43,683 bases of DNA from the NCBI GenBank assembly GCA_965649115.1, contig CBFGJN010000010.1:1-43683 (forward strand), given 5' to 3'. Shown here piece by piece: positions 33,001 through 43,683 of this stretch. The position numbers were made by a program. The stretch is from a candidate division WOR-3 bacterium (lineage in GTDB: Bacteria; Hydrothermota; Hydrothermia; LBFQ01; DSFT01). How positions within the stretch are numbered: position 1 is the stretch's first letter; each line of letters begins with the position of its first letter.

Positions 33001-36000
33001 TGAACCTTATTGGAAATATACAAAAAGCGATAGTATAGATGAAGGAAGATATGTAGAAACCAAAAGAGATGAAGATAAATATGTATTTAAAGTTCCATCT
33101 TTAAGAAATGTAGTAATGACACCACCTTACTTTCATGATGGGTCAAAGGTTCAACTTGGAAAGGATTTAACAAAAGAACAAATAAATGATATAATAAACT
33201 TTCTTAAAACCTTAACAGGTGAAATTCTAGAGGAAGCAAAACAACCTCCTATACTACCCCCTTAAAATTTTAAAAATTGATTTCATTTCTTCTATCACAA
33301 ATTATATTCCCAGGTGAGGAAAAATTTTTAAGTAATATAAAGCAATTGACATTTTCAGGTGAAAATGCAGAAGCATATTTTTCAAAAGATGGAAAATATA
33401 TAACATTTCAATCAAAAGGTGAAGGTGGAATTTACTTAATAATAGATGGAAATTATCTAAATAAGCTTCAAATGAACTTAAATGAAATGAAAGCTTATGA
33501 TTATGTCCTAAAAAATTTGGGAAATAATAAACTGATGATATTTATAAAAGGTATTTATGACACATTCGGAATTTTAAAAGGCATTAAATATGAGAAAATG
33601 TTTATAAAAAACTATTATGATTGCGATCAAATTTTTCTAATGGATACAAATGGATTTGTTTTTAAACAAATTTCAAAAGGTGGAGCAAATACCTGTTCTT
33701 GGTTCTTAAATGATAGTTTAATTTTGTTTTCAAGTACAATAAAACAAGGAAAAGAATGCCCCAAAAATTTATATGCTGATGAATATATTAAGAAAGGTAT
33801 TTATGTCTGGAAATTATTTAATTATGATTTGCTTGTTTATAATTTAAAAAATGATAGCACTTATGAAATTTATTCAAGTGGTTATTATGATGCAGAAGGT
33901 GAAGGAAACTTTGGAGATAGTATTGTCTTTACATCTTCAAAAGATGGTGATTTAGAATTATATCTTTTGAGTTTAAAAGATAAAAAAATTATTAGAAGAA
34001 TTACAAATTTTTTGGGTTATGATGGTGGTGCGATGTTCTCAAAAAGTGGAAGATATATTGTTTTTAGAGCTAAACATATAAAAGATAGTTTGGAATATAA
34101 GGAATTATTAAGTAAGGGATTAGTTAAACCTGATGAAGTTGAATTATTTATTTATGATTTAAAGAAAGATAGTTTTTGGCAATTAACTTATAGTCCAAAA
34201 GGTGTTTCAAATTTTGCTCCATATTTTCATCCCTCAGAAAAATTTATTATTTTTTCTTCAAATTTACACGCTCCAAATAGCTTTAATTTTGAACTTTATA
34301 AAATAGATATTGATGGGAAAAATCTTGAAAGAATAACATATTCAAATGGTTTTAATTCATTTCCTATGTTTTCAGAAGATGGTAAAAAAATTATTTGGAC
34401 ATCTAATAGAAACGGTAAAAGTAGAAGAGATTTTAATATATTTATAGCAGATTTTAAATGAATGCTTATTTTAAAAGCTCAATTTTTGTGGTGTGCTCAA
34501 AAATTTTAAAATTATTTATTTTTCTCACCTACTAAGCAAAAATTGTTGATTTTTTTGAAATATTGATTAAATAAATGCTCCAAAATTACAAAATGGGCAC
34601 ATAGCTAACCTCCTTTTCATAACGCAATCATAACAAGCAGGTGCTCCACAATAACTACAAGTCCTAATACAAGAATTACAAAATCCTCTTCTACAAAACG
34701 AACATTGAACATAAACTGGATTTATTCTACATCTAAAACAACGTGCAACAAACATAACCTAACCTCCTTTTATATAAACTTTTCTATTATGAACTTTGAA
34801 AGCTCATCGTTCATCTTATAAACTCCTGAAATCAGCTCATTAAGGAAATTATCAATTTCTTGATTTTTGGTTATTGAATTTATTTGTTTTATATAATTTT
34901 CTTCAATCTCCCTACATACATCTTTCCAACCACTTGTTATAATTGAAGGCAAATTGGATGAAATTTCGTTATAAACTTTGTTTCTTATTTCATTGGCCTT
35001 TTTGTTAGCATAAATAAAAAGCAATATTAATAAAATTGAAGAAACGACTATGCCATAAATAGGCTTCGCAAAAATATACTTTACAAGTATTCCTAATACA
35101 ATAGAACCAATTATTCCCAACAAAACTTGGATAAATAGATTAGGGTAATTAGTATCTAATCTATAATCAAATTTCAGATTTGGTTTTTTTTGTTTAAAAT
35201 TTGAATCTAAATCAAAAATTTTAATAATTGAGATATTATTTATCAACATCTTAGCTTTAATAATCATCTCTTTATGAAAAAATTCGCTTATCCCATCAAT
35301 GTCGGCAGAAATTTTATTATTTAGCTTCTCATTTAGGTTACTTATCAACTTCTTAATAACACTTTCTCCTTTTGTAATAATATCAAAATTTGAAATTTTA
35401 TGAAGACCCTTTTTTAAGTTTTCCAAGTAAAAATTTATATAATCTTTATCCCATTTCCTAACCTTAGTCATATTCTCTTCAAAGACTTCAATAAGTTCAT
35501 CTCTTATTATATTTAAATTGGTTTTGAAAGTAGAAACATAAGAAGCAATTATGATAACATTTCGTAAGAACTTAACCAATTTTTCATCATTCTTAAACTT
35601 CTTGGCAGATGCCGGAATATAACCTAAAATTCTGTTCTTTGGATAAATTTGTTCAACCTTTTGCTTTATATAATCTATACGTTCTTGAATTTGATTTTTT
35701 TCTTCACCTTCAAATAAATCTATTTTATTTAATATAAAAAGAATGTAAATTTCCTCACGCTTTGCTCTCTCCTTTACAATCTCTAAAAATTCAGCATCAA
35801 ATTTACTTAAACCTTTTGATACGCCAAGCATCCAAATAATAATGTTATAGTTATTCTTTTTAAGGTAATCACTTAACTCATTATTTATGCTACCATCATA
35901 ACCAGGAAAGTCAGATATTCTAACAAATTTTAAAAATTCTTGCGTTTCAGAATTAAACTCATTTAGATCCCATATCTTAACAGTTTCAGCACTTCCACTT

Positions 36001-42000: not shown

Positions 42001-43683
42001 CATCACAAAGCTTTTCAAGATATTCGTTCTCCAAAAACGATATATTACTTTTTATAAGTTCAAGTTCCCTTTCCATATTCAAACCTCCTCTCTAAGTTTT
42101 GTCTCTAAGAGTTCTGATATGCTTTTTATAGCATTTAATTGGGTTTCAATCTCTTTTATTCTTTCATCTAAATCACCTTTTTCAAGCATTTTAATTATTT
42201 CAGAGCTAATAAACTTAACCTCGTTAAATTTAATTCTAATATTATCTATGAAATCCGTTAAAATATCATTTAATTTATTAATATCTTCCCTTAAATCATA
42301 AAGACTAGTATAGACTCCTTCAATGATTCTTTGTTTTAATTCTTGTTTTTTCTTCTCTACATTTGCCAACAAATCAAAAATTGTCCAAACTAAACCAGCT
42401 AAAATGCCTATTGGACCAGCAATTGCACCAGCAATTGCCTCACTCCCAGCCCAAATAGCAGCATTAGTTCCTATAAATTCTAAAGCAATTGCTCTCACTA
42501 ACATTCCCACAGTAAATCCAGCCATAACTCCGCTTAAAAGAGAACCAAAAATATCACCACTCACAACCTCAATCTGACTTGCAATGTGCTTTTCCTCAAT
42601 TTTCTTTTGCTGATAATCTATCTTAGGAAATCTAAATCTTTCTATATTCATTTTTTCAAGTTCAGAATTAAATTCATCAACACTTTTATTGTAATCTTCA
42701 ACGTACTTTCTAATATTTGAAAAAATAGGTCCATAATAATTTTGAAAAACATCATCCAAAATTTTTCCAATATCTATTTCAGATAATCGTTGATTTATTT
42801 CTTGCTGTATCTCATCCGCGGAAAACAAAGAAGAAAAAACATTATAATTTTCTTCAACATAGCTAATAACTGCTGACTCTTGCAAAATTTTTTCTCCAAC
42901 TTTTTGAATAATTTCATCGGTGTTTAATTTAATACCTTTTAAATTTTCTATATAACCACTGGCTTTTTGTTGAAGAGACTGAGCCATTGTATTAATTTTA
43001 TTTTGTTCTCTTAATATAGATTCTTTTTCAGATTTTAACGATAATAATTGATTACTTAAATTTTTATAAATACTATTGACTTCTTTATTTATAAATTCCT
43101 TTGTTCTTTCAAACGAAGAAACTTTAGAAGATAGAAATTCTTTTTGTTTATAATTTATAACATCATTCCAAAATACCCTCTCAAAGTCCTCAAACAATTT
43201 CTTGTATCTTTTTGTTCTTTCATCTATCTCTTCTCCTTTTGCCTGCTTAATAAAACCTTGAAGCGCTAATTTGGCTGAAATGTAAAATAATTGTTTTACA
43301 TCAATTTTTTGACTATATCCCTGCTCACTTAAAATATCATTCATCTTATTTATAACACCTTTACCAATTAGGTCAAAATTGGATTCTTCTTCTTCATAAG
43401 CATCTATCTTATTAAAAACAATGTACCTCTTGTCAGGTCTTATCATTGACAATAACCTTGAAAATTTTTCACTTTCACCCTTCTTAATTCCTTGACTTAT
43501 GTCAAGTATCGTTATAACAGCATCACTTAAATTTATAGCACTTTGTATAAATTTCATCATTAATTCTTCATTCAATGTTCCAAAACCAGGTGTGTCAATT
43601 ACCTCTATTCCAGCCTTCAAATTTTCCAAAGGCATATAAATAAATACACTTAATTCATCCTCTGAAATGTTTAAAACCTTTCC

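Follow-up and report, generated by a model that had tools for sequence, protein, structure and literature searches.

Insert A, a variable insertion of 25-50 residues in the G domain of the dynamin-family proteins Vps1, Dnm1 and Drp1, is located between the G2 and G3 motifs. In Vps1 it has been proposed to brace the inter-rung interface (PMC6168280), and the yeast dynamin Dnm1 is bound by Mdv1 via a top-face residue of the Mdv1 WD40 propeller; the same study describes the positions R1-2, R1 and D-1 as the binding hotspots of the WD40 top face (PMC3419727). Among bacterial systems, the LeoA/LeoBC proteins of ETEC and the Leo-like anti-phage system are encoded by tandem LeoA-like and LeoBC-like genes for dynamin-like proteins (DLPs) with a paddle and a helical trunk. 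LeoA/B affect vesicle release, and the division into LeoC and LeoB breaks the G domain between switch 1 and switch 2 (PMC4159319). A Leo-like two-gene pair protects against jumbo phages, both P-loops being required, and the mechanism of dynamin phage defence is called unknown in that preprint (bioRxiv 2022.05.11.491447). Heterotypic G-dimerisation is required in Campylobacter jejuni Cj-DLP1/DLP2 (PMC6104087), and Bacillus subtilis DynA has two G domains per chain. Highly repetitive WD40 propellers, defined by an internal-identity cut-off of 0.7, vary generally at the top face (PMC5587647); they have been linked to bacterial innate immunity, and many decay soon after their origin (PMC9218822).

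The dynamin-like operon

The window, i.e. the whole stretch of 43,683 nucleotides that was analysed, derives from a hot-spring bacterium and contains an operon of four DLP genes (D, C, B and A, all on the minus strand) with five G domains, closed by a short cysteine-rich ORF. The features are as follows.

42079..43683, minus strand: gene D, LeoBC-like DLP
40523..42082, minus strand: gene C, LeoA-like DLP of 519 aa without an insert
37040..40510, minus strand: gene B, 1156 aa, D-type G domain without a trunk, fused to a propeller-bearing A-type DLP module
39347..40510, minus strand: B aa 1-388, copy of the G domain of D with G1-G4 intact, then a stretch like the C-terminal helices of D
39092..39346, minus strand: B aa 389-473, neck helix, G1, G2 and beta-hairpin
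38231..39091, minus strand: B aa 474-760, non-repetitive insert of 287 aa, a predicted WD40-like propeller with seven blades
37040..38230, minus strand: B aa 761-1156, G3, G4, helical trunk, hydrophobic paddle and C-terminal neck helices
34770..37025, minus strand: gene A, DLP of 751 aa, probably a pseudo-GTPase, G2 being replaced by a repetitive propeller
35964..36869, minus strand: A aa 53-354, seven 42-aa WRAP-type highly repetitive WD40 repeats and a leading partial repeat
35353..35617 in gene A versus 37647-37911 in gene B, minus strand: shared tract of 265 nt with 2 mismatches
35010..35138, minus strand: A aa 630-672, hairpin of strong hydrophobicity occupying the place of the paddle
34567..34755, minus strand: cysteine-rich ORF of 62 aa with its own ribosome-binding site, zinc-finger-like, of no family

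The dynamin-like gene cluster reported in the first-pass annotation is thus present, with ORFs A and B both open at their coordinates. The weak PADLOC matches reported there were also recovered: LeoA for C (E 1e-15), LeoBC for D (E 1e-15), and 1e-7 to 1e-9 for the module of B, whereas A gave no PADLOC Leo match. Dynamin_N matched C with E 1e-22 and D partially. Going by these weak matches, candidate LeoA-like and LeoBC-like genes stand in tandem as in the Leo systems, with paddle and trunk, and the G domain is interrupted at the switch 1/switch 2 position that separates LeoC from LeoB. The operon differs in having four DLP genes, five G domains, propellers within two of these and one copy without G2, and it scores far below the NCBIfam LeoA cut-off (C against NF041922, 20.9 bits versus 325; the other genes were not listed).

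The 5' end of gene D is truncated by the contig edge, and its start very probably lies where contig C36 ends (18691-18830), judging from the sequence there, which shares 97% identity with the first part of gene B. A PF04020 holin-like four-helix gene is located immediately upstream of this probable start. The region encoding B aa 1-388 shares 97% DNA identity with the G domain of D over 39501-40078, and the contig breaks at a near-identical 1-kb duplication. From its sequence, the 265-nt tract shared by A and B is taken to reflect either gene conversion of recent date or the collapse of a repeat. Several duplications lie within the operon, and DNA has been exchanged repeatedly among its genes.

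The window flanks hold mostly housekeeping genes, without a clear defence island; an ATPase matching HEC-01A lies approximately 19 kb from the operon. A promoter scan gave a result no better than shuffles, and in an empty-site comparison the downstream gene had different neighbours in relatives. For the 62-aa cysteine-rich ORF, no credible match was found among 150 other genomes of the phylum.

Propellers within the G domains of B and A

A complete WD40 propeller is placed within the DLP G domain both in A and in the second module of B, as previously annotated, and the two propellers differ from each other (24% identity; repetitive in A, non-repetitive in B). The G1-to-G3 spacing is 353 aa in B and 338 aa in A, versus 52-76 aa in six close homologues, and the layout is therefore not due to chance. 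The annotated position between G1 and the G3/G4 motifs holds for both proteins but can be refined: the B insert lies between G2 and G3, whereas that of A replaces G2, so that the 5' junctions of A and B differ.

In the second module of B (aa 389-1156) all four motifs are kept, with G1 at aa 420, G2 (GETT) at 444, G3 (DIPG) at 773 and G4 (NKID) at 830. Pfam detected Dynamin_N (PF00350) in two stretches of B (E 7e-35), together with WD40-type propeller models to E 2e-15. The beta-hairpin after G2 is also present in most insert-free homologues, and the insert contains no internal or genomic DNA repeat. The paddle lies near aa 1037-1077, with a hydropathy peak of 2.04 at aa 1058. B aa 1-388 lacks trunk and paddle; its aa 336-384 are identical to the last helices of D at 15 of 49 positions. 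B resembles DynA in having two G domains per chain, but it falls outside the DynA-type two-headed DLPs because its first unit lacks trunk and paddle, and it reaches 44 bits against the DynA/B model NF052648 (cut-off 1600).

The fold prediction had been called poor, which does not apply to B: the model has a pLDDT of 79.6, the paddle region itself being low. Approximately 28 strands are predicted between G2 and G3, with the strand-helix order of the G domain continuing around them and with neck/trunk helices across model aa 490-767. Model residues 88-362 match WDR61 (3ow8_A; Z 28.3, rmsd 2.3, 262 aligned), and the B insert is thus modelled as a closed seven-bladed propeller. Its two ends would lie close together, so that the G-domain core could fold. 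A contribution of the host beta-hairpin to closing the propeller was considered and is not needed, as most fold matches begin at model aa 87-89, past the hairpin. The result lists of the fold searches with this model were filled by propellers rather than DLPs, and a complex prediction of the two G domains of B, scoring 0.00, is neither support nor counter-evidence. An old, non-repetitive propeller such as that of B is not what a sensor with fast turnover would be expected to carry.

In protein A, the G1 motif is at aa 34, G3 (DFPG) at 372 and G4 at 433, and Pfam placed WD40 in seven stretches (E 2e-105). The repeats have a GC content of 34% versus 26% in the flanks, and their mean internal identity of 0.79 (first 28 positions, seven repeats) is above the cut-off of at least 0.7. 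Over six full repeats the Asp-His-Ser-Trp tetrad is kept and the top-face positions vary. At the R1-2/R1/D-1 triad pN is 0.51 versus pS 0.25, whereas outside it pN is 0.087 versus pS 0.26; only 15 of the 11,480 possible triads reach pN 0.51, the triad being the published one, but picked after the variation had been seen. This top-face variation may predate the insertion. The A insert is 37-49% identical to 2ymu, the WRAP-T designs and PkwA 5yzv, and the named repeats nearest to it, among the best 120 of 4,434 matches, are in STAND/NB-ARC proteins. It shares 42-aa repeats, high internal identity and a variable top face with the WRAP propellers, but these usually stand at the ends of STAND ATPases, kinases and caspase proteins, whereas that of A sits inside a DLP G domain; the B insert differs from them in being non-repetitive. 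A similar repetitive WD40 gene, whose repeats share a mean of 81% DNA identity, is located on contig C65.

The G1 motif of A had been described as degenerate. It has indeed lost the family serine, which is replaced by Phe, but GxxxxGKS is kept, and the bigger defect is the absence of G2, in whose place the WD40 repeats stand. The G1 serine (S36) and the switch I threonine of G2 (T60) are invariant in 20 insert-free homologues, and A has neither. With G2 replaced by the propeller and the G1 serine lost, A is probably a catalytically dead pseudo-GTPase. Consequently, of the two GTPase modules annotated earlier, the second module of B stands with its G1-G4, but for A the pseudo-GTPase reading is the better one. 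Its hairpin, with 19-residue hydropathy peaks of 2.71 and 2.34 versus 2.04 and 1.48 in B, probably forms two membrane helices. In the model of A the last repeat (aa 316-351) is unfolded (pLDDT <50), probably because the alignment placed the G2 region of the homologues on it.

Homologues and distribution of the architecture

Close homologues without the insert, reported earlier, were matched as proteins of 471-495 aa, including those of Sulfurihydrogenibium subterraneum and Hydrogenobacter thermophilus; PF00350 is annotated on them. P0002 is 76% identical to the flanks of B, and relative to it and to five more homologues the insertion in B is clean. The profile of the insert-free homologues matches BDLP 2j68 (E 4e-9) and mitofusins, with Der/Era GTPases scoring higher. 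In two further proteins, P0057 and P0128, G1 and G3 stand 322 and 206 aa apart, and neither has a propeller; these spacings and the LeoC/LeoB split point to a tolerant switch 1/switch 2 site.

The independent 735-aa protein P0003 of the same layout, cited in the first-pass annotation, was not recovered: it was absent among sets of 21 and 5 matches, the best 150 of 4,712 and the best 120 of 4,434, the last set being dominated by WD40 proteins. These searches score either a capped number of candidates or a single member of each 50% cluster, and the protein may be hidden behind P0007 or P0004. A propeller was found in one of the 166 fetched DLP-like matches, a count that omits the window's own P0001 and P0023, the pure WD40 protein P0015 and the near copies P0022 and P0024. 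The one case, P0007, comes from a different contig and is a copy of A (99% identity). Pfam found no WD40 in 48 of the longer matches. The architecture is therefore rare, being seen so far only in a single species and a strain related to it. No close A-type homologue occurs among 271 other genomes of the phylum, and no matching locus among viral contigs and plasmids. A metagenome scan gave four loci, distant or unrelated, and the clusters matched in the ESM Atlas were generic DLPs only (0.77-0.79), with propeller leads <0.9. A distant Sulfurimonas operon has three DLPs downstream of a WYL gene; 166 of 401 genomes around that genome matched (best 4 candidates a genome, with a scoring that favours unsplit domains). 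In the open-access literature, as in the previous search, no paper on a WD40 domain inside a DLP G domain was found. In a tree of the flanks the branch of A is 0.65 long versus 0.19 for B, and supports of 29-78% do not separate gain from loss of the insert.

Assembly and possible roles of the propellers

The earlier concern about local mis-assembly was largely allayed. The region does contain the 1-kb duplication that breaks the contig, the 265-nt shared tract and tandem WD40 repeats, the whole stretch is spanned by none of the pieces listed, and of the read sets, X1 is possibly a run of the source sample, with X4 perhaps belonging to the same campaign. The insert of B, however, is non-repeated, and both its junctions lie inside single read-derived contigs without differences; the 5' junction of A is crossed in X4 and in X8, the latter from another study, and its 3' junction is found again in P0007, which lies on a different contig. 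It is thus highly improbable that the layout is an artefact caused by repeats, but the repeat number in A could be mis-set. A joint 38902-36627 in X1/X4 was attributed to a chance match with a further WD40 gene.

The reading we prefer, which falls a little short of probable, is that the propeller is a target-binding module on a Leo-like membrane-remodelling, perhaps anti-phage, DLP assembly. It is favoured by the clean insertion relative to P0002 and the five further homologues, by the B model and its read-covered junctions, by the pN/pS ratios at the top face of A, and further by the PADLOC Leo matches, the jumbo-phage protection by a Leo-like pair, the link of repetitive WD40s to immunity, the STAND/NB-ARC repeats, the absence of close A-type homologues among the 271 genomes and the Sulfurimonas WYL locus. 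It is weakened by the low PADLOC scores, the housekeeping flanks, the restriction to one species and strain, the generality of top-face variation among repetitive WD40s, the unfolded last repeat in the A model, and the age of the B propeller. Under it, operon D, C, B, A would have been acquired horizontally and would be recombining, and an A-type G domain would have taken a WD40 propeller into the switch I/switch II loop. The four proteins would co-assemble at the inner membrane, as heterotypic DLPs such as Cj-DLP1/DLP2 do, a pair for which no propeller is mentioned in the cited part of that paper (PMC6104087). The propeller would project from the G domain and bind a protein target with its top face. 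In B this binding would be linked to a functional GTPase, with the D-type G domain that lacks a trunk serving as a tethered partner. A may be a dead subunit, anchored in the membrane, that confers specificity, and the top face of its young repetitive propeller would be re-tuned. The likeliest task would be to recognise a foreign (phage or mobile-element) protein and to draw the membrane-remodelling polymer to it, as in Leo-like dynamin defence.

The propeller might instead be a structural or host-facing adaptor that braces or spaces the G domains or recruits a host protein, for instance the cysteine-rich protein of the operon, in membrane repair or vesicle release. The proposed bracing by Insert A, the binding of Dnm1 by the Mdv1 top face, the influence of LeoA/B on vesicle release and the PF04020 gene all fit this, but close homologues work without the insert, and two unlike propellers together with the variable top face of A fit poorly with a fixed structural role; we consider it rather unlikely. 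We also regard it as unlikely that the propellers are tolerated by-products of recombination, a permissive loop having caught mobile WD40 propellers that are neutral in B and reside in a decaying paralogue in A. The tolerant site, the operon duplications, the similar gene on C65, the missing G2 and long branch of A, and the frequent early decay of repetitive propellers speak for it. Against it, A has an uninterrupted reading frame of 751 codons, and a second assembly contains its last 645 aa again (P0007); the propeller has its full seven repeats, with pN well below pS at the scaffold positions; A retains G3 and G4 and has a more hydrophobic hairpin; and a strain approximately 91% identical keeps the G1-to-repeat junction.

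The annotated description of the propeller as "swappable" has some support: the unlike propellers share their 3' junction, and a contig from a separate study carries an A-type repeat joined in frame to a B-type G3 segment; "sensor-like" is inferred from the variable top face of A and from propeller roles elsewhere. A bolder version of the target-binding reading, in which the switch I/switch II loop is a cassette for exchangeable receptor propellers and a dead membrane-anchored paralogue supplies fast-evolving specificity, amounting to receptor-armed dynamin immunity, appears unlikely. If true, target binding would be wired directly to the GTPase switches, and the system would correspond, among dynamins, to the NLR-type WD40 sensors and would parallel in bacteria the way in which Mx proteins recognise their targets. 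The weight of the case is limited by its rarity. A DLP with a classical binding domain inside its G domain could nevertheless serve as bait for the target of bacterial dynamin defence. A WD40 propeller directs a dynamin also in the Mdv1-Dnm1 pair, but there in trans, as separate eukaryotic proteins, whereas here it lies in cis inside the G domain. In contrast to the 25-50 residues of Insert A, a dynamin G domain can carry a folded domain of approximately 290 residues between its switches, and the 76% identical insert-free homologue provides a clean natural comparison for B.

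The DLP operon and the insertion in B

The host genome (1.85 Mb in 99 contigs, 27.6% GC, 94.5% complete) carries an operon of four dynamin-like protein (DLP) genes, D, C, B and A, followed by a short cysteine-rich ORF, and the sequencing runs containing this stretch are hot-spring metagenomes. The genes of the operon overlap or are separated by 13-15 bases, and a GGAGG site precedes each of C, B, A and the short ORF.

Features of the window, contig C10
14945-16153, minus: AAA_21 ATPase (PADLOC match to HEC-01A, E 2e-49)
32200-33265, plus: cytochrome c peroxidase-like gene, apparently scattered across several reading frames and probably a pseudogene
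34567-34755, minus: 62-aa ORF with many CxxC pairs, last in the operon; no family
34770-37025, minus: A, 751 aa
37040-40510, minus: B, 1156 aa
right end, minus: C, 519 aa, and D, truncated by the contig edge

At the end of C36, another contig of the same genome, a stretch coding for 46 residues shares 97% DNA identity with the beginning of B; D very probably begins with this stretch. On its 5' side (G000:C36:16831-18677, L016) lie ORFs of 211 and 117 aa without a family, a tandem pair of near-identical ORFs of 80-81 aa and a four-helix holin-like gene (PF04020). No credible homologue of the 62-aa ORF was found among 150 genomes.

In the second module of B (aa 389-1156), the order is G1 (aa 420), G2 (aa 444), a short hairpin, an insert of 287 extra residues (aa 474-760), G3 (aa 773) and G4 (aa 830). 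Six homologues of 471-495 aa, of which P0002 is nearest to B (76% identical), align with the flanks on both sides without the inserted block. The AlphaFold2 model (28 sequences; pLDDT 79.6, pTM 0.62) gives the insert about 28 strands, flanks it on either side with the strands and helices of a G domain, and includes a long helical trunk. Residues 88-362 of the model resemble WD40 structures with seven blades (Z 28.3, rmsd 2.3, 262 aligned). We therefore consider real the propeller that the first-pass annotation had placed inside a DLP G domain with insert-free close homologues. The module has the sequence features and the predicted shape of bacterial DLPs, and no close relative of its propeller was found in the protein homologue search or elsewhere in the host genome.

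The propeller of A and its history

A is without G2, because its seven 42-aa repeats start a few residues past the P-loop helix and stop at the same pre-G3 position as the B insert. By its G2, therefore, it does not qualify as an active GTPase, and its G1 has Phe at a position that is Ser in 20 of 20 insert-free homologues. In the model of A (pLDDT 76.5), the G-domain halves and six repeats are folded and aa 316-351 are unfolded; this says little about the seventh blade, since the input alignment placed the G2 segment of the homologues onto those repeats.

As also proposed earlier, the two modules bear different propellers, which are 24% identical. That of A is highly repetitive (internal identity 0.79), with GC above that of its flanks; it shares 78% identity with the repeats of the database protein P0260 and 68% with those of a WD40 gene from contig C65, and its model resembles WRAP structures. 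In the six full repeats, pN was 0.51 versus a pS of 0.25 at the published top-face triad positions (R1-2, R1 and D-1), and 0.087 versus 0.26 at the other repeat positions. This top-face variation may be older than the insertion. The simplest history is a single insertion in a B-like gene, followed by duplication and by replacement of the propeller in A with a young repetitive one, with loss of G2. Since the flank tree is poorly supported, the insert may instead have entered on two separate occasions, or have been lost from P0002.

On C65 (G000:C65:4336-9569, L017; also G002:C91, L028), radical-SAM-like, Hsp70-like, AAA ATPase and repetitive WD40 genes form one operon; the WD40 gene, with repeats like the A insert, lies downstream of the Hsp70-like and AAA genes, and, within the class, one of 63 further genomes has a match to the AAA ATPase.

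Integrity of the locus and distribution of the layout

It is highly improbable that the propeller layout is an assembly artefact. Repeats do occur at the locus: B opens with a 97% duplicate of the D G domain, A and B have a 265-nt tract in common, and A carries its tandem repeats; the B insert is not among them. Read-derived contigs from four of 10 listed runs were compared with the locus. Both junctions of the B insert lie within single contigs, as X1 record 5 covers aa 327-550 of B, X4 record 11 aa 414-722 and X1 record 3 aa 662-860, with zero differences; run X1 was possibly made from the source sample, and X4 possibly in the same campaign. X4 record 10 and X8 record 28 both extend from the end of B through G1 of A into about 40 bases of repeat-derived DNA; the X8 record, with 77 differences in 842 bases, belongs to a different study. 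Additionally, P0007, encoded on a separate 18.5-kb contig, matches the last 645 aa of A at 99%. No read-derived contig covers the entire operon. One X8 contig (depth 19.6, similar to its neighbours at the locus) fuses an A-type repeat in frame to a B-type pre-G3 segment, a hint of a third propeller/G-domain combination, although its short side is 41 letters and such joints can arise from repeats or other organisms.

The layout was not found in 40 relatives, one of which has weak matches to an ordinary WD40 protein and to another DLP, and 271 other genomes of the phylum gave only distant GTPase matches, in two of them. Seven proteins below 1e-30 emerged when 1.84 billion representatives were searched with a profile, and a propeller was present in one of 166 fetched hits, the A copy P0007; the independent 735-aa example reported previously was not recovered. 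As the named close homologues come from Sulfurihydrogenibium and Hydrogenobacter, transfer among hot-spring bacteria is suggested.

Among the best 150 of 4,712 profile hits (22 proteins having no G1-G3 pair), the spacing exceeded 200 aa in two of 148 pairs, P0057 (857 aa; spacing 322) and P0128 (767 aa; 206). Large inserts at this site are therefore uncommon, yet not unique. These two proteins are further DLPs whose long inserts come after G2 and before G3; the insert of P0057 looks beta-rich and that of P0128 helical, and in Pfam neither insert matched WD40 or any other family. According to PMC4159319, LeoC/LeoB are divided between switch 1 and switch 2.

Putative role and related loci

Bacterial DLPs attach to the membrane through a paddle. 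B consists of a D-type G domain without trunk, joined to the intact propeller-bearing module, and this trunk-less domain would fit a tethered activator. A would fit a dead specificity subunit: its trunk and G3/G4 are retained, its membrane hairpin is stronger than that of B, and it evolves fast. In PMC6104087, bacterial DLPs are heterotypic partners whose turnover needs G-G contact, and bioRxiv 2022.05.11.491447 describes the blocking of jumbo phages by a Leo-like pair, calling the mechanism unknown.

All that goes beyond the architecture we infer. Binding of a foreign target by the propeller is the leading, though tentative, reading, with a chance somewhat short of even. That the propeller is instead a structural part or a host adaptor seems unlikely, and we give a little less credence still to a tolerated by-product.

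The operon is similar to the Leo and DynA families but falls below the curated tests for both. A search confined to the open-access literature, subscription papers aside, turned up no publication that describes a WD40 domain within a DLP G domain. The layout is real and rare, and its function putative.

Other DLP loci were observed. On a Sulfurimonas contig (L011:6695-12556), a WYL gene is followed by three DLP genes (two D/B-like, one C-like) and an AAA ATPase cluster, and at L019:2829-8714 (G034:C138) a DLP gene precedes genes for a small membrane-associated protein and a 1078-aa ATPase.
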